The notes under the pieces: generated by a model | The model's input: only the letters and a program-made list of their open reading frames with translations | Databases searched by the model: none | Told to the model about the DNA's origin: nothing | Assembly: GCA_043228905.1 (NCBI GenBank) | Contig: JBHGNT010000014.1 | Location: forward strand, 10,850,001 to 10,914,000 | DNA from: Azolla caroliniana | Lineage: Eukaryota; Plantae; Polypodiophyta | Direction: 5' to 3' | Length of the DNA: 64,000 nt | Shown here: positions 11,131 to 64,000 of the stretch, in pieces | Layout of the letters: the number at the start of each line of letters is the position of its first letter | How positions within the stretch are numbered: the stretch's first letter is position 1 | Position numbers and translations under genes: made by a program

Positions 11131-11150
11131 CCATGCTTCAATAGTCCGCT

Positions 11151-18187: not shown

Positions 18188-18926
18188 TGTTGGGAATTCA
18201 GTCCCTCCGGATGAGAACTAGAGGAGCCGGATGAAGGGGCCAAATCCGGAAGGCTTCCGGATGCGACGCAAAAACCGGATTGAGTGAATCCGGATGGATT
18301 CGGTGCAAACCAGATCCAAGAACATATGTGTAAATATGTTTCATAGTGAGCCCATCGAGGCTATATTTGTAAATAGCCCTAAAATCATATAAGTATAAAT
18401 ATGACTTAGGGCAATCACTTTATGTGCAATGAGAGTTGTTGATAGAGTGTGTACACAGTGAGAAAGAGAGAGAGAGACACACACACACACACAGATAGAT
18501 TCCTATTGTAACTACTGGTTGGCGAAGACATAGAGCTCGAGGCCATTGCCTCTAAGTCTCACATTTAATTCCTCCCATTTAGGGTTTCCACGTAAACATC
18601 ATGTGTCATCTCTGTATTAGTTTGTTTTCTTCCATTCCTTGTTTAAGACTCGATTGTGGCCGAGCGTTATTTTTCGCACAAACTGGTATCAGAGCGAACA
18701 AAGGAAAAATGGAAGAATCGTTCGGCGGCATGTTCATGCTCACCGGCTCCAACTACCTAGTGTGGAAGTTGAAGATGAGGGACATGCTTGTGGTCAAAGA
18801 TCTCTGGCTACCGGTGTCGTAGTGTATTTCGTACACTACGTGAAAAAGTAAAAATAATATAACCGATTTAATTACATATAAATAAAAAAAATAATATATC
18901 AAGATATTTATCACGTGCATAGGGCA

Positions 18927-18980
18927 AGATTCGAACCTTGTACCTCCACGTAGCCAAACTTCAACTTCACCATTATGCTA
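18927..18980 (-). promoter_or_regulatory. Pol III A box and B box in LTR U3, antisense to the element (second copy at ~21736-21789)
   Basis: Minus strand TAGCATAATGG (18980-18970) and GGTTCGAATCT (18937-18927), then a T-run terminator candidate at ~18885-18891. Confidence 0.68.
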
Positions 18981-19574
18981 CCTTATCTTTAGTGTTCTAT
19001 AAATAGATTTAATAACTATAAGTGCTTTATTTGCGCCTACCTTTATTAAAAGGCAAATCATGTATTTTTAGAGTGCGTGAATATTTTATAGAAAAACGCA
19101 AGCGACTAAAAAATGACTCATGCACATCTAGCGTGCATGAGCACTATATTTAGCAAATAAAAGCAAGGATTAAAAAAGCATGTAGTTATGCTTAGTCTCT
19201 CCCATCACTACATAAGGATGGGGAGCACAATGTAATAGGTGTGTGAAATATTTGGAAATTGGATATATTTCCGAAAACACCAACCAATTAATATAATCGT
19301 GGGATTCACGAAAATAATATAATTATACTTGTGGGATTCACAAGTTTCTTATATCTTTCTTTCAATCTAAATACATATTCTTATCTAAATATTGATTAAT
19401 CGAATACAATACACTCGTGGGATTCACGAGATTTCTATCTCTCTTTCTAATAATCTATTTATTACTAGCCTCATCTCATATTCTTCTTTCTCCTAGTCCA
19501 AAACCTCGGCGGTTCCCACCCGACTCACGCAACGATTCGGAGCCGAAAGGCACGACACAGTTGGTGAACCCGAC

Positions 19575-21167: not shown

Positions 21168-24100
21168 CTCAATCGGAGGTTGGACCGGTCGAGGCTGGTG
21201 AAAACGAGGAAAAGAAAGCCAACCGAAACCGAAACCGATAGATCGAAACCGGGCCGGAAGGAGACCGACTCAATCGAAACCGAACAACCGATTCCGATTC
21301 GGCCGAATACGAATCCGATCGAAAGCCGATCAAACCGAAAGTCGATCGGACGAGAGCGATCCGGAAAAAAGTCAAGGTTGATGAAGACAAGAAAGAGGCC
21401 AGTAAAAGACACTACCACGAATGACAAGGGCCAAGAATATGACGAGAGAGAACAAAGAATATGGTGGATCGAATGGCGACAATGGTTCGGGTGGAAAGAA
21501 TGGGTCTACTCAAAATGGAGAGACAAAGTTGACATAGCGGGACAAACGGAGGATGAAGGGGAGACAACGAGCATCGGCAACTTCGGCACATACCGGAGGA
21601 TGTGCGGGTTCGGAGGGGGCGAGTGTCGTAGTGTATTTCGTACACTACGTGAAAAAGTAAAAATAATATAACCGATTTAATTACATATAAATAAATAAAA
21701 TAATATATCAAGATATTTATCACGTGCATAGGGCAAGATTCGAACCTTGTACCTCCACATAGCCAAACTTCAACTTCACCATTATGCTACCTTATCTTTA
21801 GTGTTCTATAAATAGATTTAATAACTATAAGTGCTTTATTTGCGCCTACCTTTATTAAAAGGTAAATCATGTATTTTTAGAGTGCGTGAATATTTTATAG
21901 AAAAACGCAAGCGACTAAAAAGTGACTCATGCACATCTAGCGTGCATGAGCACTATATTTAGCAAATAAAAGCAAGGATTAAAAAAGCATGTAGTTATGC
22001 TTAGTCTCTCCCATCACTACATAAGGATGGGGAGCACAATGTAATAGGTGTGTGAAATATTTGGAAATTGGATATATTTCCGAAAACACCAACCAATTAA
22101 TATAATCGTGGGATTCACGAAAATAATATAATTATACTTGTGGGATTCACAAGTTTCTTATATCTTTCTTTCAATCTAAATACATATTCTTATCTAAATA
22201 TTGATTAATCGAATACAATACACTCGTGGGATTCACGAGATTTCTATCTCTCTTTCTAATAATCTATTTATTACTAGCCTCATCTCATATTCTTCTTTCT
22301 CCTAGTCCAAAACCTCGGCGGTTCCCACCCGACTCACGCAACGATCCGGAGCCGAAAGGCACGACACCGGTACAGTTCAGGTACAATAAACCAGATAAGA
22401 TCGATGTCGCGACATGGGAGGTGATGCACATAAAGACAATGGCGTACATCCGGTGCTTCATCAACATGAGCATGTATAACAACTTAAATGTGCTCATATG
22501 CTCAGGGAGAAAATTAGCACCATGTTGGGGTGTAAAAACACCGTAAATTGGGTTTCGATATTCCGGAAATTAGTGAGACTCCAGTATCAAGATGGATCCA
22601 ATATGGCGGAGCACATGAACCCAATTCAGGGGCTCATAAATCAAACAACTTTGCTCGAAGTACCTCTAGTCGATGAGATACTTTGCATTGCTCCTCTGCT
22701 CGGTTCCCTCCCATATAGTCTGACACGTTGCTGCTGAAAGAAGTCTGACTGGATGCAAATTGCTACTGAAAGAAGTCTGACACATTCCGGAGGTTCGGTT
22801 GAACCTGATATCATCCGGTGGGCTAGATGATGAAGACTACGCGAGTAGCATCTGGAACGGAGTCATGAAATTCAGCAATGCAAGCCTGATTGTGGCTCGA
22901 GCCCGGAAGATCAACATGCTATATCTGATGCATGCCCGGATATGCCGGGAAGAACTGAATGTAGCATCCGACACTATCGGTGAGCTGTGGCACAAGAGAC
23001 TGTGTCATATGAGCCAGAAGGGGATGAGAAGACTTGCCGAAGACAACCTCATTCCGGAGGTGAAAGACGTGCATCTTGATAAGTACACCGATTGTTGGGC
23101 TAGTAAGCAAAACCGAACCTCCTTCTGGTCAAGATCACCAATGAGACGGAATGCACCACTAGAGCTAGTGCATACTGATGTCTGTTAAGTAGACACGAAG
23201 TCACATACCGGATCGCAGTAATTCGTGACGTTCATAGATGACCACAGCCGGAAGTTGTGGGTCTCACCGCTGAAGACGAAGGATCAGGTGTTGTCTGTCT
23301 TCAAGGAGCTCCACGCGTGAGTGGAAAGAGAAACCGGATGGAAGCTGAAAGCGGTTCAAGCATATAATGGAGGAGAGTACTATGGGCAGTTCGAAGAGTA
23401 CTACCGATCGAAGGGAATCCAGCTCGAATTCACCGTGCTGAAGATGCCAGAACTAAACAAGCTAGCCGAATGGATGAACCGGACTGTGATGTAGAGAGTT
23501 CGGAGCATGCTAGCACATGCAAAGCTACCCAAGACATTTTGGGTTGAAGCACTGATTACGGAGACGTATGTGATAAACAGATCACCCTTGGATGGAGAAA
23601 CACCACAGACAGTATGGACTGGTGGAGACGTGTCTTACCAGTATCTGAAGGTGTTTGGTTGTCTCGCATATGTGCATGTCGCAAAGGACAAGAGAGCAAA
23701 CTTGGATCCGAAGACCCAACCATGCATATTTCTTGGATACGACGATGATGAGTTCTGTTACCGGGTGTGGGATCTGGTTGAAAAGAAGGTGTTCCGGAGT
23801 CAGGACATTGTCTTCATGGAAGACAGGACCATTGGTGACTGGGAGTTGGAGAAGAAGGTGAAGAACTCCGGATCATCCAATGAAAACCGGTTTGAGGACA
23901 CAAGAACCTACCTAGTGGAAAACCAAAAGTTAGCCGGTAACAGATTAACACTCGATGAACGGGCCGGATTCGGACAAGAAACCCAACCAACCGAAGAAGA
24001 AGAAAAAGGAGACACCGGAACTAGACAAGACCCTGAATCAGATTTGGATGAAGAACAAACGGAGGAACCGGTAGTTGAAGAACAAAGGCGGAGATACCCT

Positions 24101-26019: not shown

Positions 26020-27841
26020 TGACAGGAACTACACGCTCCCAATGAACAATGCTAGGCCACAACCGAGCTTAGAATCAAAACACAGAGAAACGGTGTCGTG
26101 CCTTTCGGCTCTGGATCGTTGCATGAGTCGGGTGGGAATCGCCGAGGTTTTGGACTAGGAGGAAGAGGAATACAACTTAAGGCTAGTTATGAATAATAGG
26201 AAGAGAAGTAAGATAGCAATATCGTGAGTCCCACGAGTTTAGTGTGTTTTAAAACAATATTTAGATTATAAGAATAATTTAGATGGCAAAATTCGTGAAT
26301 CCCACGAATGTATTAGATTGATCAATTCTTCTATATTAATCAACAACCATATACATATTTTTCTCCTCCTTATATAAAGATGGAAGAGGCTAAGCATGGC
26401 TTCATGCTTTTTCACCTAAAGTGTCCATGCACACTAAATGTGCATGTGATGCTTTGTCATTTCCTAAATATAGGGCTCATGCACGCTAGATGTGCATGAG
26501 TCACTTTTAATGTCACGTGTAAATAAAATATTCGCACTCTAAAGAATACATGATTTTTACCTTTTAATAAAGGTATGTGTAAATAAAGGTCTTATACGTA
26601 TTAAATCTATATTTATAACACTAAAGATAAGTTATTACAATGGTAAAGTTGGGGTTTATCTACGTGGAGGTGCATGGTTCGAATCCTGCCCTATGCACGT
26701 GATAAATTCTTTTGATATATTATTTATTTATTTATATGTATCTAAAATCGGATATATTATTTTATGGTTTTCACGTAGTGTGTGGAATACACTACGACAA
26801 CGGGGAATGAATGCACGACACAATGGAGAGAAGGGAACATAGGATGTTAACGTGGAAAACCCAAACTAGGGAAAAAACCACGGCAGCTCACAGACTGCAA
26901 ACTATCACTATGTCAGAATGTACAAATGGTAAAGCACCGAAGCAACGACCTTGAGCTTTCTATCTTCGCCACAAGCGGCGGTTACAACAGAGGCAACGAC
27001 CTCTTCCTCTCTCTCACTCTCTCTGTACACAGTTGCACGCTCTAATCTTGCACCAACAAGAATGACAACTACTTATTACTAAGTTTTCCCTAAGTCATAT
27101 TTATACTAATATGACTTTTCGGCTATTTACAAATATAGCCCCGATGGACTCTCAGAAAACATATTTACGAATATGTCCCTTCATCCGGTGAGCACTTCTC
27201 ACTGGGCCTTCATCATCCGGCTCTTGTCGGGTACTACTCATCCGGTTCTCACCGGGTCCTCCGTAGCCGGGTACTCATCCAATTCTCACCGGGTCTTCCA
27301 TAGTCGGGTACTTGTCATCCGGTTCACACCGGGTCTTCCGTAGCTGGGTAGTCCACATACGGTTTCATTTGACGGAGTATCCATTTGACCGCGTTCTAGT
27401 GCTCCTTGCCGGGATTGCTCATAATCCGGCTTACCACTCCGACTGCGTATCCTATATCCGGTCGGGTACACACCATTGCATACATTAAGCTCCCGACGGC
27501 AGAGGCATATGGAACCTTCATCATATCTGCCTTCTATGTTTTTGTCTTCGGGATTTGCTTACCTGATAACCTGCAGTTTGTCGGATGTGTCGATCCGACC
27601 GGTTTTGCTTCTAACATGTTGAACCGCTGAAGCAACTTTGTCACGTATTTCTCCTGTGACAGCCATAGTTGCTTCGTTGGCCGGTTCCGGATGATATCCA
27701 TCCCCAGCATTTGTCTTGCTGGACCCAAGTCTTTCATCGCGAAGGTTCGGTTGAGAGCCTTCTTTAGCATCCGTATTTTGGCTTGGTTCTGTCCGGCGAT
27801 CAACATGTCGTCCATGTACAGAAGGAGTATCAGGAGGTCGT
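26020..27841 (-). mobile_element. Inverted fragment of a related copia copy: partial LTR (26020-~27360) plus RT fragment
   Basis: Reverse complement of the X-family LTR; ORF 27534-27815 (MDDMLIAG...MKDLG) on the minus strand. Confidence 0.85.
26094..26799 (-). mobile_element. Solo LTR related to the 18815-22366 element
   Basis: tgtcgt...acgaca ends, reverse-complement similarity to 18815-19557, 4-bp TSD ACGG both sides; B box GGTTCGAATCC at 26676-26686. Confidence 0.9.
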
Positions 27842-48574: not shown

Positions 48575-48703
48575 AGCTCTATGGATAAGTGGCAACTAAT
48601 TAGCTACTACCATAGTTTAGTACAGTAGCTAATTAACTAAGTGGTAGCTAATTAGCTACTACCATACTTTAGTTGAGTAGTTAATTAGCTAGCACTTAGC
48701 TAA
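48575..48703. repeat. Left remnant of the palindromic TAGCTAATTAGCTA satellite
   Basis: Same units as 54355-56245, separated from them by the chromovirus insertion. Confidence 0.9.
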
Positions 48704-48713
48704 TGTCATGGCA

Positions 48714-48767
48714 AGACTCGAACCCATGACTTTATGCTACATGGGTCGAGCTCTTACCATTAGATTA
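48714..48767 (-). promoter_or_regulatory. Pol III A/B box-like pair at the start of chromovirus U3, antisense (second copy 53924-53977)
   Basis: Minus strand TAATCTAATGG (imperfect A box, 48767-48757) and GGTTCGAGTCT (48724-48714). Confidence 0.55.
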
Positions 48768-48881
48768 TGAATTGTATTTTGTAGGATATTATTTTCATTT
48801 ATACTTTATCATAGAAAATTGATGTATATTCCAGATCTCTCTGGAACATTCTAGAAGCTTCAGGATTATTCCTAAAAACAC

Positions 48882-48888
48882 TATAAAA
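48882..48888 (+). promoter_or_regulatory. LTR TATA box
   Basis: cTATAAAAgg about 30 nt upstream of the sequence complementary to the PBS. Confidence 0.75.
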
Positions 48889-49144
48889 GGAGGCACAAGG
48901 CATTGTTTTGAACCAAATTGGTTCAACGCCAGTCTTAAGCCTCTTAGCCGCTTGTACTTATCTTTTCACATAATATATAGCTGCTGTCATCATCTCTCTC
49001 TCTCTCTCATTCTCGCTATCTCTCTCTCTCTCCTCTTCTCACTTCCTCTCTCGGGAATCTTACGCAGTCCCGTCCTCTTAGTACTAATAGTACTGTTGTT
49101 CTTAGTACTAATTCCATCTCTGTTTTAGTACTATTCCTGACAGT

Positions 49145-49156
49145 TTGAACCAATTT
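49145..49156 (+). other. Self-priming primer binding site
   Basis: ttgaaccaattt is the exact reverse complement of aaattggttcaa at 48915-48926; no tRNA-type TGG PBS follows the LTR. Confidence 0.85.
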
Positions 49157-49211
49157 GTTCCTCTAGCCTACTTGTCACTCTCCCTCATCCTCCTACCCTT
49201 TTCCCTATACT

Positions 49212-50350
49212 ATGGCTACTGTTAGCGCCCAAGAATACCAATCCGTTTTCTCCGAGCTACAGTGCCTAAAAGAAAAGTTTGTTGCCCTGGAACAAGAAAA
49301 CCAACGGTTGATAGGGGATCTACAACAAATCGCTCTAGAAAAACAACAAACACAACAACAACATGGGGAGTTAGCGTTACGGGTACAACAACTCGAAGCA
49401 GCGTTGCAACAACAAGGATCCAGTCCCCAAGGATTTCATAAAGAGCCCAAGATTGGACTTCCTGTGAAATTTGATGGAACGCGTTCGCAATTCCGGGGAT
49501 TCCTTAATCAGGTACGCTTAGTCATCCAGATGCATCCTTCCCGATATCCCACTGATGCATCTCGAGTCGGCCTAATAGGCACACTACTTAGCGGCTCAGC
49601 CTTGGCATGGTTTGCTCCGCTTCTAGAAAAACAATCACCCTTACTTAATAACTTTGAAGATTTTATTGGTGAGTTTAAAGCCTGCTTTGGAGACACCGAC
49701 AGCATCAGGACGGCGATCAACAAGATCCGGCGATTGCGTCAAGGCGATCGTCCAGCCTCTGCCTACGCGGCGGATTTCCGCCTACTTGCTTCAGATATAC
49801 CCTGGGATGATCAAGCACTAATGGAGCAGTTTCGCTATGGCTTGCGAAACGATGTCAAAGATCTACTTCTAACTTTCCCCGAAGAACCAAAGTCTCTTAC
49901 GGAGGCAATCAGTCGAGCAGTTCGATGTGACAACCGCCTTTTTGAATGGCGTTCAGAACGTCAATTACAGATACCACTTACGCCGCAGTCGCGGCTAAAC
50001 CGTTTGCACGAGACATACCTCAAGCAAATACTTCGACACCGATGGAGATCGATACCATGCGTCGACGCGGCCCGTTATCGGAAGAAGAAAAGCAACGACG
50101 ACGTGTCAATCGATTATGTCTTTATTGCGGTGGACCAGGACATATCGCCATCAATTGTCCCCATAGGCCAAGAAGACAGGTAAATCAAATCGTCGCCTGT
50201 ACTAAACCCGAGTCAATTCTTCCCTTCGGAGTGTCTGATAGTATTAATAGTACTAATAGAGTGTCAGATAGTATTCATAGTACTAATAGCCCAAGTATCT
50301 CAAATAAATTTGAAATCCTTAGTCAATTAGATGAAGAGTTAAACGATTGA
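49212..50350 (+). CDS. gag: Chromovirus Gag (coiled coil, capsid, CCHC), frameshifted near 49970
   Basis: 49212-50183 has [14 protein letters not shown] and LRQG...F..GL; the knuckle [14 protein letters not shown] lies in another frame (49946-50350). Confidence 0.88.
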
Positions 50351-53300
50351 GTCCAGCCAAAATAGGAGCCATTTGGTTGGACAGCAGCCCTAGATCTATA
50401 CAGCCCATTAGTGGTTCCATTCCTTCCAAGCAAGTTAGCAATGTGTTCCTAGCCCAAGTCATTGTTAGTACTAAAAGTACTCCCCCAGTACCCGTCCTAG
50501 CACTTTTAGATTCCGGAGCTAATTCCTGTTTCATGGATCGAAATTTTGCCCAAGCTTCTCAGATATCCTTAAGAAAACTTCCTTGTCCCGCATCTTCGTC
50601 CCATTGCTTCCGGGAATATTGTAGAAGAATCAGAACCCATTCAAGTTGTCCTAGGTAGTTTTGTGTGTATAATATCATTTAATATAATTAGTAGTCCAGA
50701 GCATCCTATTGTCCTAGGATTACCTTGGCTTGAATTACATAATCCAGCCATAGATTGGAGAACAAGAGAAGTCCGATATCGACCACCCCAAGAATCAACT
50801 CACCGAGTTTCGACCATTTCACTCCATCAACTACGCGAAGAAGGACCAAAGGAGGCAATGTTCCTATTTGCCATATCAGTACATCCTTCTAGCACTATTA
50901 AGAAGGACTCCTCAATACAACTTCCGGCAAAATATCATCCTTATGCCGATGTATTTGACAAGGTAAAAGCCGGTACCCTTCCTCATCACCGTCCCTATGA
51001 CTGTCCCATCGATTTACAACCAGGAACCGAGCCACCATGGGGACCAATTTACAACTTGTCACCCACCAAGTTAGAAGTCCTTCGAGCCTACATAGAGGAG
51101 AACTTGGCAAGCGGGTTCATCCGTCATTCGAAATCTCCGGCCGGTGCACCCATCTTCTTTGTCAAGAAGAAAGATGGCTCACTTCGTCTTGTCGTTGATT
51201 ACCGCGGATTGAATAAAGTCACCATCCGGAATAGGTATGCACTTCCTCTTATATCAAGTCTTTTAGAGCGAGTTAATGGTGCCAAGTTTTTTACTAAAAT
51301 CGACCTACGAGGAGCGTATAATCTCGTGCGGATCCGACCGGGAGATGAGTGGAAGACCGCTTTTCGCACACGGTATGGGCATTTCGAATATACTGTTATG
51401 CCGTTTGGCCTAACCAATGCACCCGCAGTCTTCCAACACATGGCAAATGATATATTCAGAGACCTCTTGGATATCTGTTTGATCATTTATCTGGATGATC
51501 TGTTGATTTATTCGAAGACCCAGGAAGAGCACGATTCTCATGTACTATTAGTACTAAAGCGACTCCGCGAGAATGGTCTTTATGCCAAGCTAGAGAAATG
51601 TAGCTTTGACTGCAAGCAAGTGGAATTTCTAGGCTACGTCATCTCCTCAAAGGGCATCGCCATGGATCCAGCTAAAATCCAAACTGTACTAGAGTGGCAA
51701 AATCCACGGTCGGTACGAGATGTACAATGTTTTCTAGGCTTTGCTAACTTCTACCGTAAGTTTATACAAGATTACTCGAAGATTATTTTACCTCTCACAC
51801 AACTTACGAAGAAGGGCCAAGCATTTCTTTGGTCCATCGAAGCAGATATGGCTTTTCGGCATCTTAAGAAAGCCTTTACATCAGCACCGATTCTAGCTCA
51901 TGTGGATACAAGCAAACCATTCATCATGGAGGCCGACGCATCAGATTTCGCCCTCGGTAGCATCCTTTCTCAACAAGGCGATAAAGAAGAGTTGCATCCG
52001 GTGGCTTTCCATTCGCGCAAATTCAAGGTTGCAGAAATCAACTACGAAATACATGACAAGGAGTTATTAGCCATCGTGGATTCATTTGTACAATGGCGGC
52101 ATTTCTTAGAGGGCTCTCCACATCAGGTCATTGTCTTTAGCGATCATAAAAATCTTGCTTATTTTCAGAACGCTCGCGTACTAAATCGACGGCAAGCTCG
52201 GTGGGCGCAATTCCTCACGCGTTTCAACTTCGAAATCACATATCGACCGGGGAAGCAGCAAGGAAAAGCAGATGCACTATCACGGCGTTCATATCTTGCA
52301 CCTCGTCCTGGTGACGCAACATTTGATAATCAAAAGCAAGTAATCTTGGGACCAACACGATTGCACACAACGCGGATTTTTCACACCCCGATGGATTCAC
52401 GGATTACCGATGACATACGTGCAACCTTGAAGACGGATAGTTTTGCTCAAGACATCCTGGCGCACATTGATACTTCTCGGGCATCCTGTTCTCAGTCTCA
52501 ACAACCAGGTATTGACTACCGACAATTCGAATATCATGATGGTTTGTTATTCTTTAAAAAGCGCGTATATGTCCCCGATTGCTCCTGTCGCCTTCAAATC
52601 GTCCAACATTGTCACGACACCCATACGGCGGGACATTTCGGTAGTACCAAGACGTTGGAGTTAGTGCAGCGATCTTTTTGGTGGCCCCACATGCGCCGTT
52701 TTGTCGACGACTATGTTCGGACCTGTGATGCTTGCTGCCGAGCAAAGATGCCACGACACCATCCATATGGCTTGTTGGAACCTTTACCAATTCCAAGTAA
52801 GCCATGGCAGTCTATTTGTCTTCATTTTATTACAGATCTGCCGGTCTCGAAGGGGTTCGATGTTATCCTAACCGTCGTCGATCGATATACGAAGATGGCA
52901 CATTTTGTGCCATGTACTAAAGCCATCACTAGCGAGGAAACCGTCGCTCTTGTTATGCGTGAGGTATTTCGGCATCATGGCCTACCAGACAGTATTATCA
53001 GTGACCGAGGCCCGCAATTTGTCTCCAAATTTTGGCAGCATCTCTTCAGGATGCTCAAGGTCTCCTGCAACCTCTCCTCCGGCTACCATCCTCAAACTGA
53101 CGGACAGGCGGAACGAACAAACCAAACGTTGGAGCAATATCTCCGGTGTTTCCTGAGTTATCAACAGGACGATTGGGCCGAGATTCTCCACTTTGCGGAG
53201 TTTGCGTATAATAATGCTATTCACTCCTCGACTCGGGTTTCCCCATTTCTCGCTTATACCGGTTTCCATCCTCGCTGGTCGGTGATCGACACTCCAGAGC

Positions 53301-53902
53301 TACCTACCAACCCTCGTGCCGAGGACCATTTGGAGAGGCTACGCAAGATCCAGATGGATCTCTCTACTCACCTTCGTCATGCTCAACACACACAGAAGAC
53401 TTATGCGGATCGTCATCGGATTCCCTCCTCTTTTGCCATCGGAGATCGAGTATGGCTCTTACGTCGTCACATCAAGACTACTCGACCGTGCGACAAGTTG
53501 GATTATCGACGACTCGGTCCTTTCCGTATTACGGGGAAGATTAATGATGTCACCTTCCGCCTGGATCTCCCTCCGCAGCTTCAGATACATCCGGTTTTCC
53601 ATTGTTCTCTTCTTGAACCTTATAAAGCAAACACCATTCCTGAACGTGTGACACCACCGCCGCCCCCGCTGGAGTTGGACGCCGGCCTGGAGTATGAAGT
53701 TGCTGCCATCCTCGATTCCAAACTTATTCGCAACAAACTTTATTACTTGGTCGATTGGCTCGGTTATAGTCCGAGCGAACGTACTTGGGAACCCGTCGAG
53801 AATGTTGCCAATGCACAAGATCTTCTTGCTGATTTCCACCGAAAGTATCCGGACAAACCCGGTCCGCAATTAGCGCCGACTCGTTCCACTCGTCGTCTTT
53901 AA
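50347..53902 (+). CDS. pol: Chromovirus Pol: protease (frameshifted near 50600), RT, RNase H, integrase, chromodomain
   Basis: LLDSGA; YLDD; EADASD / ELLAI / SDH; HHCC; GPF motif; C-terminal YEVAAILD...YLVDWLGY...TWEP. The 1079-aa frame 50663-53902 is open. Confidence 0.95.
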
Positions 53903-54354
53903 GGGGGAGATAGTGTCATGGCAAGACTCGAACCCATGACTTTATGCTACATGGGTCGAGCTCTTACCATTAGATTATGAATTGTATTTTGTAGGATATT
54001 ATTTTCATTTATACTTTATCATAGAAAATTGATGTATATTCCAGATCTCTCTGGAACATTCTAGAAGCTTCAGGATTATTCCTAAAAACACTATAAAAGG
54101 AGGCACAAGGCATTGTTTTGAACCAAATTGGTTCAACGCCAGTCTTAAGCCTCTTAGCCGCTTGTACTTATCTTTTCACATAATATATAGCTGCTGTCAT
54201 CATCTCTCTCTCTCTCTCATTCTCGCTATCTCTCTCTCTCTCTCCTCTTCTCACTTCCTCTCTCGGGAATCTTACGCAGTCCCGTCCTCTTAGTACTAAT
54301 AGTACTGTTGTTCTTAGTACTAATTCCATCTCTGTTTTAGTACTATTCCTGACA

Positions 54355-56245
54355 GCTAATTAGCTATTACCATAGTTTAGTACAATACCTACTTAGCTAA
54401 GTGGTAGGTAATTAGCTACTACCATAGCTTAGTACAGTAGCTAATTGGCTAAGTGGTAGCTAATTAGTTACTACCAAACTTTAGTTCAGTAGCTAATTAG
54501 CTAAGTGGTAGCTAATTAGTTACTACCATAGTTTAATACATTAGCTCAGTGGTAGCTAAATAGTTTAGTACAACAACTTATTAGCTACTACCATAATTTA
54601 GTATAATAGCTAATTAGCTAAGTGGTAGCTAATTAGCTACTACCATAGTTTAATACAGTAGCTAATTAGCTACTACCATAGTTTAGTGTTGTAGCTAATT
54701 AGCTACTACCATAGTGTAGTACAATAGCTAATTAGCTAAGTGGTAGCTAATTAGCGACTACCATAGTTTAGTACAATAGCTAATTAGCTACCACTTAGCT
54801 AATTAGCTACTACCATAATTTAGTTGAGTAGGTAAATAGCTAAGTGGTGGCTAATTAGCTACTACCATAATTTAGTACAGTAGCTAATTAGCTAAGTGGT
54901 AGCTTAATTAGCTACTATACTACCATACTTTAGTATATTGCTAATTAGGTAAGTGGTAGGTAATTAGCTACTACCATACTTTAGTTATAGTGGCTAATTA
55001 GCTAGTACGATACTTTAGCTGAGTCACTAATTAGCTAACTAGTAGCTAATTAGCTACTACCATACTTCAGCTGAGTAGCTAATTAGGTACTACCATAATT
55101 TAGATGAGTAGCTAATTAGGTACTACCATACTTTAGATGAGTAGCTAATAGGTACTACCATACTTGACCTGAGTAGCTAATTAGCTACCACTTAGCTAAT
55201 TAGCTACTAGCATAGTTTAGTATAATAGCTAAATAGTTAAGTGGTAGCTAATTAGCTACTACCATACTTTAGTTATAGTGGCTAATTAGCTACTACCACT
55301 TAGCTAATTAGCTACTACCATAGTTTAGTACAATAGCTAATTAGCTAACTGGTAACTAAATAGCTACTACCATACTTCAGCTGAGTAGTTAATTAGTTAA
55401 GTGGTAGATAATTAGTTATTACCATACTTTAGCTGAGTAGCTAATTAGCTAAGTGGAAGGTAATTAGCTACTACCATACTTTAGTTATAGTGGCTAATTA
55501 GCTACTACCACTTAGCTAATTAGCTACTACCATAGTTTAGTACAATAGCTAATTAGCTAACTAGTAACTAAATAGCTACTACCATACTTCAGCTGAGTAG
55601 CTAATTAGTTAAGTGGTAGATAATTAGTTATTACCATACTTTAGCTGAGTAGCTAATTAGCTAAGTGGAACGTAATTAGCTACTACCATACTTTAGTTAT
55701 AGTGGCTAATTAGCTACTACCAAACTTTAGTTGAGTCGTTAATTAGCTAATTGGTAGCTAATTAGCTACTACCATACTTCAGCTGAGTAGCTAATTAGCT
55801 AACTGGTAGCTAATTAGCTACTACCATACTTTAGCTGAGTAGCTAATAAGCTAAGTGGTAGCTAATTAGCTACTTCCATAGTTTAATACAGTAGCTCATT
55901 AGCTCAATGGTAGTTAATTAGCTACTACCATAGTTTAGTATAGTAGCTATTCCAGTAGGGGATTAGCAATTCTGGTATCTAATTAGCTATAGTCATAAGC
56001 AGCTAATTAGCTACTATGGTAGCTAATTAGCTATTGTTCTAGGAAACTAATTAGGTATTGTGGTAGCTAAATAGCTATGAATGGTAGTTAATTAGTTATT
56101 CTAGTAGCTAAATAGCTATGTTCAATATACTTAGGGAGCTAATTAGCTATTTTGGTACCTAATTATCTATGGTCATATTTTGAGGTAGGTAATTAGCTAT
56201 TCGGGTATGGTCATATTCAGAGTTAGCTAATAAGCTAACTAACTA
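54355..56245. repeat. Satellite built on the 14-bp palindrome TAGCTAATTAGCTA, with 19- and 33-bp subunits and a 212-bp higher-order period
   Basis: Dozens of palindrome copies alternating with ctaccatagtttagtacag and agtgg spacers; the block at 55261 recurs at 55473 and 55685. Confidence 0.95.
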
Positions 56246-57122
56246 ATCTGAAAAGTCAAAACAAATGTTGAGATAAATGTAAATACCTAAGGTACATCAA
56301 GAAGATGATTGGGATGCTCCTCGTATTGACTAATTCCAACACGTTTCTTGCATAAATCCTTCTTATTGGGTGAAACCCTACTCTCATTAGTCCAAAATAT
56401 TGTGATTATATCCTTGATTTATGATGTTATGGGTGTCATTGGCTTACATCTTTTTGCTAGCTTTAGCAAACTAGTTCCTTCACCCGAGGAAACTATCTGG
56501 TTCAATGTATTGTACACACTTTTTCTACTAACACCAATTACCTTAGATAGCACACTGATGTTAACATCGTCAACATCACTATTAAGTAACATCATTAGAC
56601 TAGAAATTTTTAAGACAAGATCATCTTCAGACCTGCTCATGGATACGAAACTATTACGGAGATTATTTACTAGTACAAATGTTATGTTTGCATTAAGACC
56701 ATCACAATCAACTAACTCCTTTATCGATGCATCATTTAATATTCCATAAAGTACTACCTTCTTTTCTTCATTTCTGATGTGCTTGGTTTGAACATTGAAA
56801 TAGTCTACAACCTTTCTCTCTATGATAGTAATCTCATTACTTCCATTCTCAATGATATTTAGACCTATATCCCAACCAATACTATCTTTACCTTTAGTGA
56901 GTGTGGCTTTCGTATCCTTCAACAATTGACGATGTTTTCTTCTTTTTTTCTGCCCAATACTTTCGTATTGCTTGTTGTGTCCTGATAGCGTCATCCCTAT
57001 CTTGATGATCATTCAGGGGTAATTCTAAACACCCTCCTTCCCCTTCCATTTGGCTTGACGGGTGCTACTGATTAGGAACACAGTCTACGGGCAGTCCTTC
57101 AACCTAGACCTCAAAGCGACTG

Positions 57123-57531
57123 TGTTGCAATGAATGGTATCGTCGCAGTGTAATAGTTAGTGGGATACCTCCCGTATCCTAGTAGCGTATAAGGGAGTCG
57201 GCTACAACCGAACTCCTTAGATCGTGGACTAGCAACCGCATTGTTACTCACACCTACGCTCTTATGACTACGCTACGCCACCAAGAATCACAGACACACA
57301 GTAGATTAACCATAGATACGCACAGGGATCAGAGAAGATAGAACTCTATTAAGATACGCCTTTTACATTATAAATTACACGCTACGTCTATCACAGGTTT
57401 TCTGCCCTTTATATACGCATGTTCTTTTAGCTGTTCATGCTTCCCGCGCGAACCGTTTACATGAGTTACAATATTACTATATTCTATATTTCTGCACTCT
57501 TGTTCGTAGGTTGCTATTCCGGCGGACAACA
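57123..57531. repeat. LTR-like sequence of unknown element A (left edge tentative)
   Basis: TGTTG...CAACA ends; minus-strand TATATAAAGGG at ~57405-57415; followed after 2 nt by tggcacgcccgtggga (57534-57549). Confidence 0.6.
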
Positions 57532-57578
57532 CCTGGCACGCCCGTGGGATAGGTCCATGGCACATCAGACCCACCCCT

Positions 57579-60060
57579 TTAATCTTCCTCCAAAATGGCC
57601 CTGATGTTTGGTTCTGCTCTGGTGTCTGGGTTCGGGGACGGCGTAGGGCCTGTAGGCGCATCGTTTTGTGGTTACCGTGTTTGCTTGGGAGGGCTTCCTA
57701 TGGTGTCACTAGCTTCCTGTGTGGACGGTCCGGGTTCTGCTGGCTCTTCTTCTGATATTGTGGTTGGTTCAGCCGTCAGCGAGCTTGCGGTAGGTCGCGG
57801 TTCTGTTTCGTCCGTAACTTCCTCCATGATGTCGGTCGTAGTCGTACGCTTCGGTGAGTGGGGTTGGGGTTCCCCTTGGTTCAGAACGTCCTCCGTGATG
57901 TCGGCCATAGTCGTACGCTCCGGTGGTTGGGGTTCCTCTTGGTTGGCGGTTTCACTTTCTGGTATTGCGGGGGGCTCCACTTGCCGTTCCATGCTGTTCA
58001 CCGTAGTGGTAATTTCCGGTGACATGGGCTGAGGTTCCTCTTGTTCGGTAGTATCCGGAATTGGTATCGTGATGGATTGTTCACGTGCTGCGGGCTTGCA
58101 TGATCTGGTGAAACAGGTCCTCCTGACTTTTGCCAAAATCATTTAGTAGCTACGCGAGTTCCTCAGAATGTTGGTCCGCTAGCGTGCGATAGTCCTGCAC
58201 TAGGTCCTCGCGTACTGCCACAATGCTTTCCTCATTGAGTTTGTAGAACCCTCGGTCGTCTTTCCTTCAGTTCTCCCAGTCCGCCCAATATGTATGCAAT
58301 TCCACCGCTTGTGCGGCCCACGCCATCCATCCTTTGTCTAGCGTCGATTTTAATTGCACCGTAAACCTCTTCCGATTCGTTTGCAGAAGTATGTGCACGT
58401 TGTCCGTTATTGCTTGGCAACGGTTGCATGCTTCTTCTACGGATTTCTTGAGGTTTTCAATTTCTTGTTTACTAACCGCTGCCGCTTCCTCATAAGTGCT
58501 CCTCCTTCCTGCCCAGAGCTGAGATTCCTTGGAATGTAGTTCTTCCAGCTTTCCCATTTCATTGTTTAGGCGGATTTCTAGCTGATGCCTCCTCTCTTGT
58601 TCTCCACCCAGTTGCTCGTCGAACCATGCTCATCGGTGGTGTTGGCCATTGGTTGAGCTGCCTGTTGCGTTGTAGTCATGTTACACTCTAACTCCGCGAT
58701 GCATGCGTTGGCCTTTTGTAGCTCGGCTTGGGTCAGTTTGACAGTCTTCCAGACATTTTAATTTTTAATCGCCATATCCTTGGCGCCCATACTGACCTTC
58801 GCTAGTTCCCGATGAACTTTGACAAGGGCCGCGTTTAATGGAGGTAGTTACATCCCCATTCGGCGTATACCGGCGTTCCTTTGTTTGCCGACTTTGGCTA
58901 ACTGATCCTCATCGTTGCTTTCTGCCGTTTGTGTTAGCGAGCGCTCGATCATCTAGTGCTCCGCGTGCTCCTCAGCCATTTGTTGTGAGACTTTTATTTG
59001 TTGCATTGCCAAAAATTCCATGAGTTCAAAAGTGGTTGCGAACTGCAATAGTGTGCCGAACTCATGGGCCATGTCCGGAATGTCCGGATATGCCAGGACC
59101 TCACTTTCCGCCGTAAATACGCCTTTCCCCCGTTGTGACTGGGCCATAATGATCGGTCGTGGTTCCTGGATTATTTCGAAGGTGGTGTTGGGCTCCGTAG
59201 CTACAGAGCTATCGACCACGGTTGTCGTCTCTGTGGCCGCAAGTGTGTCTTTAACTAACCCGCACCCATCTTTCCTGTCCAGTCTCTGCCGTTTCGGCCT
59301 CGGGCTTTCCTATCGTGGTTCGGCTTCCAGCTCCTGTGACGCTTCCTCGATGCACTCAGCCTGCTCTTCCTGTGTTGTTCGCGTGTTCGGCTGCGCAGGT
59401 TGGGGTTCATCCTCCCACTCTGTGGTGGCTAACTCCACTAACCTTCACATCGTGGATCTTGGCAACGGTGTGTGTTTGCTGGGCTGCAGTGCCGACAGAC
59501 CTTGGGGTGGGAATAGTATCGTCAAATACTGTTGTATGATAGGGCATGAGCTTTTTACCTCCTTGATACGCGTGCAGGCCTTCCCATAACACCGGCCCAG
59601 TAATGACCCCCCAATCAACCGTACGCCCTTCAAAGGTATCAATGATGATACCTGGCTTCTGCTTGGGCATCCCATATGCGTTTCCATGTACACATCCAAC
59701 CTGCAATAGGAACTTGGCGATTTCGCGGAAAAAGGGGTTTGGGATCTCCTTCGTTCTATATGCCTTGGCGGATGACGAATATGGACTGAAATATCTCTAC
59801 AAAGATTCCGCAAGAGGGATTTCGAAGTGCCTTTCACCCATTGATGATAGGCCCAGCTTTTTCCGGATGGATGAGTTGGTGACCGTGTCCATGTTAAGCT
59901 TCCTAGCGATGTCCAGTGCGTTAGGGTGCGGAGGTGCCACGGCAACTCTGATGTACCCATCCAAGAATTTCTCCACAAGCCATCGACGCAAGGCGGCAGA
60001 GATGGGTATCAGCATAGTCGGAATAGGCTCGTGGCTAATCGGTGAGGATTGATGGCTATG
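57579..60060 (-). pseudogene. Unknown accessory ORF of element A (N-terminal globular domain, coiled coil, Pro/Glu/Thr repeats), decayed
   Basis: Fragments 59797-60186, 59407-59706, 58953-59219, 58267-58557, 57672-58142; homologous to 60672-63620; last codons ILEED*. Confidence 0.65.
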
Positions 60061-60259
60061 GCGAACTTGGGCTCTGTGATAGGATGACGAAGAGGGTGAG
60101 GAAGGGGAGCGATGAGATTTAGAAGGTGGGTTTCTATATTGTGCAAAAAACCTTCTATTTCCTTCTTTTTGTGGCCTAGGGTTCATTGGTCAGTGAGCCA
60201 TTGTGGTGCCGCGTGTTCTTATCCTAGAAGTTTTTGCATGCCTTAAGTCCTTTTAATAG

Positions 60260-60621
60260 TGTTGTCTGCCTGGCCGGACTAGCCTCAACACAGGTGTCTA
60301 TACGACACTTCTCCAAAGGGGTGGTAAGGATTGGATGCTAGGTTACACGCGTAAGATGATTACAATTAAGCACAGACGGTAAACAATACGAAGATACAGA
60401 TAAACACGCAATAATTACTTTTGTATTACTTCCGTCAAAGCCTTTTACAAATCATTGGATCCTTTTATAGGCATCCGGCAAGGTTACAATCGGTGCGCTT
60501 AGGCAACCGACATCCGAATCGGTCTGGATCCCTCCGAATAATAATTCTACTATTATTTACTTCCTATTATCCGATCCGACTCCGCCTTCCCACTTGTCCT
60601 TGCTCTTCTGTCCGGCCAACA
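60260..60621. repeat. LTR-like sequence of unknown element B
   Basis: TGTTG...CAACA ends; minus-strand CTATAAAAGG at ~60460-60469; followed after 2 nt by tggcacgcccgtggga (60624-60639). Confidence 0.65.
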
Positions 60622-60671
60622 CATGGCACGCCCGTGGGAAAGTGCCTTGCACTTCGAATCCACTCTCGGCC

Positions 60672-63620
60672 TCATTCTTCCTCCAAAATATCGAGCACAC
60701 TCTGCTCGATGGTGTCAAGTGGTGCTTCTTCCTCCAATTCTTGTTCCTTGCCTGCCTAGTCTCCGACCTCCGGTTGGGTTGGCTGTTCCGTAAAAATTTG
60801 CTGCTCCGGCTCTGCTTGATTCTGTGGTGCCGGTGCTTCCTCACCGCTTCGTCCGGGTTCTTCCTGTTCTCCCTCCGTTCCAAGCTCTGTTCTGTTACCA
60901 GTGTCGCTTTCTCCGGTCTCGACTGGTCGGCTCGGTACGCCTTCTTCCTCTGCTCTGGTGTCTTCCGGTCTCAGCTCTTCTTCTTCTCCGGCATCGGTCT
61001 GCTCCTGCTCTTCTTCTTCTCCTTCGAACGGAAGTTCTTCTTCGGGTATTCCTCGTCAGGGTTGTTCGGTGTCGGTTGGTTCAACTTCAGCCGGTCGCTC
61101 TCCCTCACTTATAGTGATTGGCGTCGTTCTTCCCTTGGCTTCCTGTCGTAACCGGTCCTGCTCGTATTTCTCCAACTCCAACTGAGTTGCGAGCTGCCCG
61201 TCATCCAACCTCTCTACCAACCCTCGGATTTCTTTGAGATGTTCTTCCACTAAAGCGTAGAAATCCTCCGACAATTCTTCCCGAATGGCGACGATACTTT
61301 CTTCATCCATCTTGTAGAACTTGTCACCGGTCTTCCTCCGATTCTCGGCATCCGCTCGGAGTGTCTGCATCTCGGCTGCCTGTTGTGACCACTCCTTCCA
61401 TAGCTTTTCCGTACTTTCGTTGATGCTTGCCTGAGCGCAGGTACTCCAACCTAACATGATGAGCTTGATCCGGTCAACCCCCGCCTTAGCATGCGCATAA
61501 GCTTCTTGCTTTTCCTTCCTTGCCTGTTTTATAATGTCGGTCATTATTTGAGCCTGGGCCTCGTAATCCGCTTTCTGCTTTTCATAGGTACTTTGCAGTT
61601 TGCTGATCGTGAAGGTCGATTTTTCCTTTTCTTCATTCCTGATCTTGGTCAGATCCAGCTTTTCCCGCCTTAGCGCCTCTAATTCCTTCCTTCTCTCCGT
61701 TGCTTGGGCTATTTCCGCCGACAATGCTTCCTTGTTGGCACTGACCTCATCCATTGCCTTAGCCAGGTCTAATCGGGTCTCTTTGAGCTGTTCTTTCATC
61801 TTCTCTATTTTCCGGTCGTAGTCTGCTGCCCGTTTCTTGTTGTCCGACTCGGCCTGCTTGTGATCTCGGTAGAGACGGTCGAAGTCCTCCGTCTTCTGCT
61901 TCAGGCGTCGGTTTGCCTGAGCTCTTAACCGATCGTCCCGGTCCTTCTGTTGTCAGAGTTCTTCCTGCAGTCGTTCTATCTCCTCCTCGGCATGTCGACG
62001 CAGTCGGTCCTTCTCCTTTTGCAGCTTTTCTTTTTCTTCTTGCAGTCGGTCATTAGTGGCTCGGCCTTTCCGGAGGCCTTCTTCCATTTTTCGCCTGTCA
62101 TCCTCCACCGCTTTCCGCTGCTCCCTTTCTCTTTCCCTTAATGCCTCCTGAGCTTTTAACTCCTCTCGTAAGGTTTCTATTATTTTTTCGGTCTCAGGAC
62201 CGGTTTGCAAGGCTACCGGTTCCGGTTCCGGTTCTGGTTGCTTCCTTGTTGTCCTGACCGGCTCGGTGACAACTTGTGCTTGTTGAATTCCTTCCCTTGC
62301 CTACAACAGCTCCCCTTGCATTTCCTCGATCTGTGTTCGGAGCGCGACCAACTCTTGAGTTGTTGTATGCGTCAGCTGTTGCCTACACGTTTCTTCTTCC
62401 TCTAACTGGTCCGCTACTCCCGATAACTGCTCCGAAAGCCATCTCAGCCATTGTGGCTTTGTGCTTCCTGTGTTGGGGTGGCCTTGCTCACTTCTACTGC
62501 TTAACTCAGGCTGTTTTTCCGGCCTTTTCTCTGGCTCCGGCGCTTGTTCATTCTTCTTCTCTGGGATGACCGGTTCTCTGAAGTCCGGCACAACCGGTGT
62601 CGGTGGTGCTTCCCTCGGTACGGGTTCCGGTACTGCTTCCGCCTCGGCTACTGGAGGTGATCCTTGCGCCCTCTGCTGAGTTTTGTCAACTGGTGGAGCC
62701 GGTCCTTTCGCCCGTCTCTCCCGACCTTGTCTTGCTGGGAGTCTTACCAGTGGTTCGGATGAGTCTTCTGTTTCAGCTTCCTCCTCCGGTGCGGTTACCA
62801 GACGGACCTTTTGTATAAAGACCTCTGGTTCCGGTTCCGGCCGTCGCAACGTTATATTAATTGGTTTGAGCGCTACCGGTTCCTCCTCGGCCGATTTCCC
62901 TTTGCCTTTTCCTGCCGGTTTTGCCTTTGTTGCCGATTCCTGTTGCTATCGGGATGGTCCTTCCCCCCGCTGTTCTACTTCTTGCTGGGTCAATCCGGGG
63001 GTGTGTTTCTCCAGGATCTGTCGGCGCTTTGTGACCTTTTTCGGCGTCGTCTCCTGCCGACCTCTTTTCTTTTGTGTGATGGGGAGCACCGGTGGGACTA
63101 GCACTATCCCGGCCCATAGCTTTTTTCCTTCCACAAGATTCTTGATGGCCTCCTTCAATCCTTCAGTTATGAAATGGAGCCAGTCTACTTGTAATCCTTC
63201 GTATGCTGCTATTAAGAACGTTGCCCGGTACCTGGCTATGGCTGGGGGACGAGGATTCACGAATCCGTATTCCATCATGGCGCGAGCCACTTCTCCGAAT
63301 AGCAGGTTCTCTCCGCCCTGTGTTCGGTACGCCTTGCTGCTGATAGAACGCTCACGGAAATATTCGAACAGGATTTCACTTGAAGGGTTTTCGATTGTTT
63401 GAAGCCCTCCTGCTTTTATCCCCATGAGCGCCTGCACCGCTCCTTCCGTGATTTCTGATAAATCGATCGATGCTGCCACCTGCTCTGGTTCTGCATGTGG
63501 TGGAGCGTCGGCGATCCGTAGCAATCCTTTTAACCCGTTCTCCCTCATCCATTGGCGTGCCTCCTCCGACAGTACCATTGTTTCGAATTCTTCCTTTGCT
63601 GTCTGTTGTTCAGGATCGGG
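60672..63620 (-). pseudogene. Unknown accessory ORF of element B (N-terminal domain, Pro/Glu linker, long coiled coil, charged tail)
   Basis: Fragments 62946-63578, 62301-62849, 61953-62210, 61056-61799; last codons ILEEE*; TATA-like ctatataat at ~63715-63723 on the minus strand. Confidence 0.7.
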
Positions 63621-64000
63621 CTATGTGTGCGTTGTGCGTCGGATCGCTCTTCTGTGCTTCTGCGCCTGTGTGTAGGAAAATTCGTAAAAAGTAAGTCCTT
63701 CGCAGGCCTGTGTATTATATAGTGGCTTTTGCCTCGAGCCGCCCTTTTTCGTTTCCCGCGCATGTTCCTCTCCCGCCATAATTAGTATGTCCTTTCTTGT
63801 TTGCCGCGTGTGAGTGCCCACGTTCCATGCTTTAAATAGCAAGTACGCACACGTCCTTCTTTAATGCATGGCGCCTCTTCGTTGCATGGTGGCGCTCCCA
63901 CCTCTTGTGATCTCCCCATCACTACTATGATTCGCGTCGATTTTGCCCACGTCTCTTTTATTTCTTTTTTATTTCTTTTTTTTATTTCTTTTTTTTTCCT

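Follow-up and report, generated by a model that had tools for sequence, protein, structure and literature searches.

The right-hand end of the window (the whole stretch of 64,000 nucleotides of Azolla caroliniana DNA analyzed here) holds what are probably two nested Ty3/gypsy retrotransposons of an Athila/Tat-related plant lineage without aRH, in which a tRNA 3'-end cassette takes the place of the polypurine tract (PPT) and a second host tRNA would prime the plus strand. All features described below lie on the minus strand and are given in order of increasing coordinate, and each element has one long terminal repeat (LTR) inside the window. We infer from the homology of the adjoining open reading frame (ORF) to that of element 2 that the 409-bp sequence with TG...CA ends at 57123-57531 is the 3' LTR of element 1. 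It is followed by a 2-nt spacer between the LTR edge and CCA (57532-57533), a 16-mer that is identical to a tRNA 3' end, terminates in CCA and stands at the PPT position (57534-57549), the remainder of the cassette (57550-57574), consisting of a decayed hairpin insert and the T-arm 5' strand (57566-57574), a sense-oriented 3' extra ORF with stops and a frameshift (57579-60050, start approximate), and part of the spacer between pol and this ORF (60051-60259). From the layout, we infer that element 2 is nested at the edge of the latter spacer. Its 362-bp 3' LTR, also with TG...CA ends (60260-60621), is followed by the 2-nt spacer (60622-60623; like the LTR and spacers of element 1, delimited from the sequence), the CCA-ended, tRNA-identical 16-mer at the PPT position (60624-60639; tRNA positions 60-76 without base 66), a hairpin insert with a 6-bp stem and a 3-nt loop at tRNA position 58/59 (60640-60654), a copy of the T-arm 5' strand and the start of the T-loop (60655-60663; approximately tRNA positions 49-57), the 3' sense extra ORF (60672-63578) and the pol-to-extra-ORF spacer (63579-64000), which is matched by blastn to the spacers of the related loci L001, L022 and L010 and contains a TATA-like motif (63712-63722). 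The last bases of the window match the spacer that starts some 20 nt past the pol stop of L022, and the pol stop of element 2 is expected about 20 nt past the window end.

Most features given in a preliminary description of this DNA were recovered: the 16-mer is present in both elements on the minus strand, the ORFs end in ILEED* at 57579 and ILEEE* at 60672 (29 and 32 nt ahead of the 16-mer, respectively), the 16-mer is followed by 2 nt and TGTTG in both cases, the two LTR bodies fail to align with each other, and each LTR contains a TATA box on the strand of the ORF (57406-57416 and 60461-60471). The 16-mer has only these two matches in the window at up to 3 mismatches, with 0.22 expected and two reached in 1 of 100 shuffles. 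The long ORFs were described with the right ends and strand, but both are broken in the window, ORF2 by 5 internal stops in 968 codons and ORF1 by many stops and one frameshift. The two extra ORFs share 31% identity (tblastn, E 3e-19); that of element 2 encodes a helical N-terminal domain, a low-complexity linker and a long coiled-coil-like region. The extra ORF has no Pfam match, and the Atlas hits of its N-terminal domain to PF20167 and PF03078 (0.81) are leads only.

Read in the sense direction, the cassette consists of the T-arm 5' strand, the hairpin, the T-arm 3' strand, the acceptor strand and CCA, after which come the 2 nt and the TG of the LTR. Its approximately 40 nt, with the 16-mer at the end, resemble tRNA positions ~48-76, CCA included, split by the hairpin and lacking base 66. 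The reference is a tRNA-Arg(TCT) gene from a phage contig, with which 26-27 bases of the cassette agree when the hairpin and the missing base are skipped. A phage tRNA serves as the stand-in because the host tRNA gene was not found: ARAGORN detected no tRNA gene in the window, the plant-derived loci or 12 fetched regions, and Rfam returned nothing real in 57000-61000. The resemblance to a tRNA-Arg 3' end noted previously is present but exceeds 16 nt, extending into the T-arm across the inserted hairpin; the arginine identity itself is presumptive, given that it derives from the phage stand-in. The cassette is kept in all 11 relatives that reach the end of the ORF (9 whole, 2 cut by the contig end). 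In the read layout, where conservation is biased by seeding and end clipping, positions 60617-60645 show no variant at 2% or above in 4 of 4 runs, depth peaks on the cassette, and other families join on both sides. The window copy of the element 1 cassette departs at 57553 from nearly all read-derived contigs, that of element 2 has one change, at 60659, relative to most contigs of X17/X18, and the 3-nt loop of the hairpin differs between relatives. Pattern matches in G002 and in other G001 contigs were due to chance where inspected (6 of 8 fetched), and no such element was found among the viral contigs. In models that use RNA:RNA energies in place of RNA:DNA, the tRNA pairs with the minus-strand DNA at -23 to -31 kcal/mol in 6 of 7 cassettes, beyond all 200 shuffles of each, and with the sense strand at 0 to -11 kcal/mol.

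The orientation of these elements is apparent from relatives of element 2, which, on the strand equivalent to the minus strand of the window, contain a 5' LTR, a short primer-binding site (PBS), gag-PR-RT-RH-INT, the extra ORF, the tRNA-like site, 2 nt and the 3' LTR; because this order runs on one strand, the 16-mer occupies the place of the PPT. In L010, one strand reads LTR end, 6 nt, PBS, gag-PR-RT-RH-INT as a single frame of 1944 codons, extra ORF and cassette; L001 and L022 agree with this layout, and L014 contains cassette, LTR, PBS and gag within a single contig. L010 and L014 stem from a small number of related assemblies and probably each merge many copies. The Ty3/gypsy domain order, gag and PR-RT-RH-INT, was detected by Pfam in the L010, L001 and L022 frames, the protease match being weak (E 0.006). 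The LTR of element 2 aligns at 91% to the L010 LTR that stands before the PBS and gag, and loose read-layout ends at 60255 yielded the same PBS in 3 of 4 runs (2 samples); the read layout did not show 5' LTR flanks for the family of the window. Accordingly, the two observations named in the preliminary description as supporting a minus-strand element were both made in close relatives: gag-pol lies on the strand of the extra ORF and the LTR TATA box, and a separate PBS is located behind the 5' LTR. The geometry of that reading is supported by the layout of the relatives, and its priming mechanism keeps the status of a proposal. The PBS starts with TGG, 6 nt (L010, L014) or 2 nt (L036) after CA, and we take it to be a tRNA-Arg site. 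Modeled pairing between the 3' site and the PBS of the same element, calculated without a shuffle control, is partial (-10.2 in L014 and -19.8 in L036); this partial pairing and the different sequences of the two sites led us to reject the cassette as a simple inverted copy of the PBS. Support for an internal TATA box that would serve the extra ORF is weak, the motif being TATA-type in 9 of 29 loci and CTACA-type in the remainder.

No purine tract abuts the 3' LTR in any of the 12 copies scored (both window copies, 9 loci and L036): the last 15 nt contain 7 purines, with a longest run of 3, whereas three control elements from the same window have 10-13 purines there, in runs of up to 7-10. The most distant case, L036, is a full element with two LTRs from another assembly and the sole distant full-length relative found, on an apparently chimeric contig that contains bacterial DNA farther along; among the 10 loci inspected of 79, it alone contained an LTR pair, so that the Athila-like loci gave no PPT control. 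Identity in pol is 64%, and the L036 LTRs (7813-9454 and 19919-21573; 93% alike, TG...CA ends) cannot be aligned with those of the window elements. The outer flanks are unique, which fixes the LTR edge, and share only ATA, one base short of a 4-bp repeat, so that the target site duplication, 4-6 bp in Ty3/gypsy elements, is imperfect. L036 has an 18-nt PBS and, at its 3' end, a hairpin, a tRNA-like end, CCA, 2 nt and TG, with 8 of the last 10 nt of the site identical despite the unalignable LTRs. With the stand-in tRNA, its modeled pairing is only -13.0, no better than the best shuffle (-14.1); the T-arm 5' match is about 5 nt, and 13 of 16 positions match a different phage tRNA. A single-sequence structure prediction for its ORF gave a pLDDT of 37.

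The sequence comparisons suggest a lineage beside Athila, among liverwort-related elements without aRH and similar to Tat Z. The RT is 44-48% identical to liverwort relatives and 37-41% to angiosperm relatives, falls outside the seed-plant Athila clade, and groups with Riccia and Marchantia proteins with support of 84 in a quick tree (88 rows, most matches below rank 78 left out) and 98 in a FastTree analysis of 33 chosen rows, both trees being built without labeled Tat references. This RT clade is sister to, not inside, the clade with PF03078-bearing Arabidopsis proteins, the Athila labels being assigned via Pfam. No second RNase H family was detected in the L010, L001 and L022 frames (Pfam, E 0.01); TatI-III, Ogre, Retand and Tat A-L are marked by an extra RNase H of archaeal type (aRH) and decay of the native one. 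Here, the native RNase H keeps D, E, D and D (by eye), and this combination characterizes Tat Z1 and Tat Z2, Tat lineages that lack aRH and occur in land plants other than flowering plants (Biryukov and Ustyantsev 2023, PMC10508981; PMC13468544). The earlier label 'Tat-type' is therefore loosely true, but for a lineage without the aRH domain. The chromodomain that chromoviruses have at the integrase C-terminus was not found by Pfam, and the chromovirus-like pol present in the window is distant from this lineage. The PBS is unlike the Athila one quoted for ATHILAfinder (10.64898/2026.03.20.713144), and the PPT junction typical of Athila is absent.

Because a copy of a tRNA 3' end stands where the purine tract is absent, a second host tRNA likely primes the second strand; in the interpretation that we favor, it would anneal to the minus-strand DNA. 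The first tRNA would prime minus-strand DNA at the PBS, and, after the first jump, RNase H would clear the RNA, exposing DNA complementary to the second tRNA, likely an Arg isoacceptor other than the first. This tRNA would pair over its last 15-16 nt and, in the window families, also over positions ~48-57, with the DNA hairpin looped out at 58/59. RT would then extend from the CCA-OH, copying the 2 nt and the LTR, which would yield the usual 2-nt overhang for integrase, and the tRNA would then be removed by RNase H. Instead of the whole molecule, a fragment from the tRNA 3' end could be used. The site would be inherited via genomic RNA and not recopied from the tRNA, in keeping with the fixed loss of base 66.

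Alternatively, the primer might be the element's own RNA: a cassette remnant would survive RNase H in folded form and be cut at or just after CCA, priming the plus strand as an atypical PPT that looks like a tRNA end to RT. We consider this unlikely, although it requires no trans factor, the sense RNA of the window-family cassettes is predicted to fold on itself into an extended T-stem and hairpin (-20 to -30 kcal/mol), and the geometry of the 3' edge equals that of a PPT. L036, however, drops the internal T-stem yet keeps the tRNA-like 3' 15 nt, CCA and spacing, and RNase H resistance of a mixed sequence is not expected from PPT biology as outlined in PMC3185662. Moreover, a remnant would pair with its own cDNA regardless of its letters, which would leave the tRNA identity unexplained; T-loop letters are kept although the insert destroys the T-loop shape, which would favor pairing over mimicry.

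Still less probable is a non-priming cassette with a role in packaging, dimerization or strand transfer or as a tRNA-fragment decoy, the plus strand starting from a nearby purine run or mixed remnants. Both window families do have purine runs of 7-10 nt, located 42-53 nt upstream of the LTR, and a 14-mer in this region is common to elements 1 and 2, but the upstream tract differs from relative to relative and L036 has no purine run of at least 7 within 120 nt. Furthermore, three families whose LTRs are unrelated all have the LTR edge fixed 2 nt after CCA, a start 40-50 nt upstream would place the cassette inside the LTR whereas the 5' LTR of L036 begins with TG next to unique flank, and the sense strand pairs poorly with the tRNA.

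It is very improbable that the genome RNA is antisense, with the cassette serving as the genuine first PBS and the second strand primed from the site behind the 5' LTR. Such a scheme would exploit the quasi-symmetry of the element, in which a tRNA-complementary site faces each LTR, but TATA boxes, poly(A)-like signals, gag-pol and the extra ORF share one strand (the L036 LTR has TATA-like motifs on both), and the deletion of base 66 is never repaired at a level of 2% or above, unlike what would be expected of a first PBS recopied from the tRNA. There is also no pyrimidine tract behind the 5' LTR, so the antisense route too would need two tRNAs. The remaining reading of the preliminary description, in which a plus-strand element would have an ordinary PBS, an antisense extra ORF on its 5' side and a normal PPT at the opposite end, has next to no probability: the plus strand does read LTR-CA, 2 nt, TGG locally, a textbook PBS geometry, and the gag-pol of element 1 itself was not seen, but in the element 2 family and L036 the end of pol immediately precedes the extra ORF on the same strand and a further PBS stands behind the other LTR. 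This layout refutes the reading for element 2 and, through homology alone, for element 1.

In canonical LTR reverse transcription (retroviruses, Ty1, Ty3, Tf1), the minus strand is primed by a tRNA or self-primer and the plus strand by an RNase H-resistant PPT (PMC3185662; 10.1101/2022.12.06.519325). The elements described here resemble canonical ones in having two LTRs, a PBS behind the 5' LTR, RT-RH-INT with the four acidic residues of RNase H, and a 2-nt offset before TG, but they lack a PPT and have in its position a tRNA-identical cassette that terminates in CCA. Similarly to Tat Z1/Z2, they have no aRH and an intact native RNase H, their nearest named relatives are in Riccia and Marchantia, and their clade lies beside seed-plant Athila. 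The PBS and PPT are not treated in the portion of PMC10508981 at hand, and the accessible text of PMC13468544 has 0 mentions of PPT, PBS or tRNA. Athila has a conserved PPT junction and a tRNA-Asp/Asn PBS (Neumann et al. 2019, PMC6317226; ATHILAfinder 10.64898/2026.03.20.713144) and shares with the present lineage the absence of aRH and chromodomain, the 3' extra ORF and an AT-rich LTR-PBS gap of 3-6 nt; unlike Athila, this lineage has no PPT junction, a PBS of another type and an RT outside the seed-plant Athila clade. Helenus TRIMs also contain a sense-oriented tRNA-derived sequence, which, as summarized by Kojima (2024, PMC10886601), lies in the LTR as a Pol III promoter, with the PPT kept; here, only the tRNA 3' part and CCA are present, outside the LTR, at the PPT position and in autonomous elements. 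A literature search, including by sequence, did not find a tRNA-end cassette in place of the PPT described. In the bipartite or extended PBS of Ty3 and Ty1, a further tRNA-related site, close to the element's 3' end and involving the T-arm, is complementary to the tRNA on genomic RNA. Unlike that site, the present cassette is tRNA-identical and can pair only on the minus strand.

Because the site mimics a perfect PBS on the wrong strand, solo ends of such elements may be oriented backwards and sense ORFs called antisense during annotation. Collectively, the sequence evidence makes it likely that a land-plant gypsy clade dropped PPT priming and uses one host tRNA on the RNA genome and a different one on minus-strand DNA via a hairpin-split T-arm site, which would constitute a third route of plus-strand initiation, present in many high-copy families and in more than one host. 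The sources cited above for canonical elements (PMC3185662; 10.1101/2022.12.06.519325) regard plus-strand priming from a PPT as general among LTR retrotransposons and retroviruses, and a tRNA-primed plus strand, if true, would break this rule. The site of about 40 nt, the tRNA and the intact RT frame form a compact, testable substrate. Should the proposal hold, a tRNA annealed to a DNA template is a normal starting point for RT in a successful lineage, the choice of primer need not depend on RNase H specificity, and the synthesis of both strands may hang on the host supply of tRNAs or tRNA fragments.

In the window, copia, chromovirus-like and Phygy-like elements are nested together, a content suggestive of a non-seed plant. 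The CCA-ended 16-mer, identical to a tRNA 3' end, has just two matches there allowing up to three mismatches (0.22 expected), at 57534-57549 in element 1 and 60624-60639 in element 2, both, as claimed in the preliminary description, on the minus strand. The surrounding layout holds as well: each 16-mer lies 29-32 nt past the stop of a long ORF (about 30 nt had been claimed) and is followed, after 2 nt, by an LTR beginning with TGTTG (57123-57531 in element 1; 60260-60621, the 3' LTR, in element 2), both LTRs carry minus-strand TATA boxes, and their bodies, described as unrelated, give no mutual alignment. The long ORFs (extra ORFs) stop where that description placed their ends, but both are broken in the window; their homology is distant, at 31% identity (E 3e-19). 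Elsewhere in the nest, a minus-strand Phygy-like gypsy element (6751-13986; DUF4100, RT, RH and INT; LTRs 96% alike) sits inside a copia element. A young non-autonomous plus-strand LTR element (18814-22367; 745-bp LTRs 99% alike) has a 556-codon frame without a Pfam match, a PBS like that of the Phygy-like element and a normal PPT; a related inverted LTR lies at 26091-26799. A short-period satellite, extending to ~56200, hosts a young plus-strand chromovirus-like element (48698-54355; LTRs 99% alike, 1109-codon pol, normal PPT).

Relatives were gathered from the extra ORF: the alignment of 10 close homologues led to 33 loci. One of them, L010, begins within an LTR that is 91% like that of element 2 and ends in CA. 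A gap of 6 nt separates this LTR from a PBS that starts TGGCGACCAC; next come a frame of 1944 codons with gag, zinc knuckle, RT, RNase H and integrase, then the extra ORF and finally the cassette, a ~40-nt tRNA-like site containing the 16-mer, with every part on a single strand. The order is identical in L001 and L022, and L014 runs from cassette through LTR and PBS to gag within one contig; each of L010 and L014 probably collapses many copies into one assembled sequence. The last 111 bases of the window match L022, starting ~20 nt past the pol stop, and this match, together with the order in the four loci, places element 2 on the minus strand. Minus-strand gag-pol with a PBS behind the far LTR, the arrangement to be checked for, is thus what the relatives of element 2 (L010, L001, L022) display. 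Element 2 is therefore a minus-strand element with 60260-60621 as its 3' LTR and the extra ORF in sense, and its 16-mer occupies the PPT position; element 1 would share the minus-strand layout by homology alone. The site is real and conserved and is no orientation artefact. The loose end at 60255 shows an L014-type PBS in contigs of three of the four runs (two samples). Outside the 3' LTR of element 2 (in 60249-60259), the adjoining five bases equal the first five of the family LTR-to-PBS spacer, CTATT. This may be a coincidence at a TATA-like motif belonging to element 1, or the LTR may have been integrated together with an unprocessed end of the cDNA; the opposite end of element 2 lies beyond the window.

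Scanning a pol alignment against genome contigs gave 79 loci, and the 10 inspected included a complete distant relative, L036. Its LTRs, at 7813-9454 and 19919-21573, are 93% alike and have unique outer flanks; an 18-nt PBS begins 2 nt past the 5' LTR, and gag-pol and the extra ORF are both in sense. Ahead of the 3' LTR stands a hairpin of 8 bp whose sequence differs from that in the window families, then a tRNA-like end and CCA, with 2 nt left before TG. Its TSD is imperfect. The pol core is 64% identical to that of L010, the LTR does not align with the window LTR, the extra-ORF domain is remotely related to that of the family (E 5e-5), and the last 10 nt of the site match the family cassette at 8 of 10 positions. 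Since unique flanking DNA precedes the TG at which its 5' LTR begins, plus-strand synthesis must start no more than a few bases from the CCA. L036 is plant-type DNA within a bacterial bin: retrotransposon DNA of this type lies in the first 30 kb of the contig (G001:C10), which becomes bacterial further along, and eukaryotic gypsy contigs occur in many GTDB representative genomes.

Of the 15 nt that lead up to the 2-nt spacer, 7 are purines and the longest purine run is 3 in both window copies, nine loci and L036, against 10-13 purines and runs of 7-10 in the equivalent 15 nt of three control elements of the window. The window families do have purine runs of 7-10 nt further upstream, at 42-53 nt, inside the last codons of the extra ORF; none was found there in L036. 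The comparison tRNA, a stand-in for that of the host, came from a pattern scan of viral contigs (two loci, in which ARAGORN calls one tRNA-Arg(TCT) gene). Against it, the family cassette covers positions ~48-58 and then, after an inserted hairpin (6-bp stem), positions 60-65 and, with base 66 missing, positions 67-73 and CCA. Across relatives the hairpin loop and upstream bases vary, whereas the stem and tRNA-matching bases are constant, and all 11 loci that reach the ORF end have the cassette (nine whole, two cut by the contig end), the other 22 of the 33 ending before it. In four of four runs, including two further organism labels, no variant of at least 2% was listed at 60617-60645, no insertion restored base 66 and summed depth was highest on the cassette, while contigs of other families join at 60614/60618 and 60652/60663, all with a bias from seeding and clipping. 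In loose-end contigs at 60623 this 16-mer adjoins another LTR-like end across a longer spacer; they come either from another cassette-bearing family or from one with this tRNA at a normal PBS.

We consider it probable that a second host tRNA anneals to minus-strand DNA and primes the plus strand. Modelled with RNA energy terms, the stand-in tRNA pairs with the minus strand at -23 to -31 kcal/mol in six of seven cassettes, beyond all 200 shuffles of each, and with the sense strand at 0 to -11 kcal/mol; the L036 site pairs no better than its best shuffle, and matches another phage tRNA end at 13 of 16 positions. The methylated A of the tRNA 58/59 region is unable to pair. Second-tRNA priming is suggested because three families keep a CCA end of post-transcriptional type at a distance of exactly 2 nt from TG, a sense-identical site can pair with minus DNA only, the T-loop letters are conserved though the insert breaks the loop, that insert falls at 58/59, the site of the RT-stopping methylated A, and the internal T-stem is lost in L036. 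The stop of RT at this base is described in the accessible text of PMC3185662. The main rival, a tRNA-like RNA remnant of the element itself as primer, draws on the stable fold of the cassette in the window families but appears distinctly less likely; a non-priming role of the cassette is improbable, and an antisense genome very improbable. A plus-strand element with a normal PBS and a 5' antisense ORF is least credible, since in L010, L001 and L022 gag-pol and the extra ORF share a strand and a separate PBS lies behind the 5' LTR.

The N-terminal domain of the extra ORF (63039-63578, minus strand; L001:5042-5581) has 186 relatives at E<=0.001 and a confidently predicted fold (pLDDT 92.5), with the DNA-bound transposon anti-silencing protein VANC21 (9lnj) as best PDB match (Foldseek E 0.16; VIA Z 6.0, a middling value for a helical domain; 163 residues superposed at rmsd 3.7; Z 2.1 for the following row). 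A DNA-binding anti-silencing function is thus a lead from the predicted model. About 143 nt before the invariant Met, all 29 loci tested carry CTA(T/C)A(T/A)AA (63712-63722 in the window), TATA-type in nine of them and a possible internal promoter; database versions of this ORF begin further upstream and may be over-called.

Among the best 120 of 689 pol homologues, Riccia and Marchantia proteins reach 44-48% and angiosperm Athila-type proteins 37-41%. Trees, built by quick methods without labelled Tat references, group L010 with L036 in a subclade with good support, inside a liverwort-related clade that is sister to seed-plant Athila. Neither aRH nor a chromodomain was detected in the pol frames, and native RNase H retains its four acidic residues. 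Absent aRH and intact native RNase H are shared with Tat Z1/Z2, the aRH-less Tat lineages, as far as the available text of Biryukov 2023 (PMC10508981) describes them, and the sequences would fit a tentative assignment to these lineages.

In the accessible portions of the literature compared (Neumann 2019, Vicient 2025, Biryukov 2023, PMC13468544, the Helenus paper, ATHILAfinder, the S. osmophilus preprint and PMC3185662), with subscription papers mostly outside coverage, we found no description of tRNA-primed plus strands or of this cassette, and wherever the plus strand is treated, PPT priming is assumed. With a second host tRNA as the candidate plus-strand primer, these families would likely represent a known element class with a new replication step.
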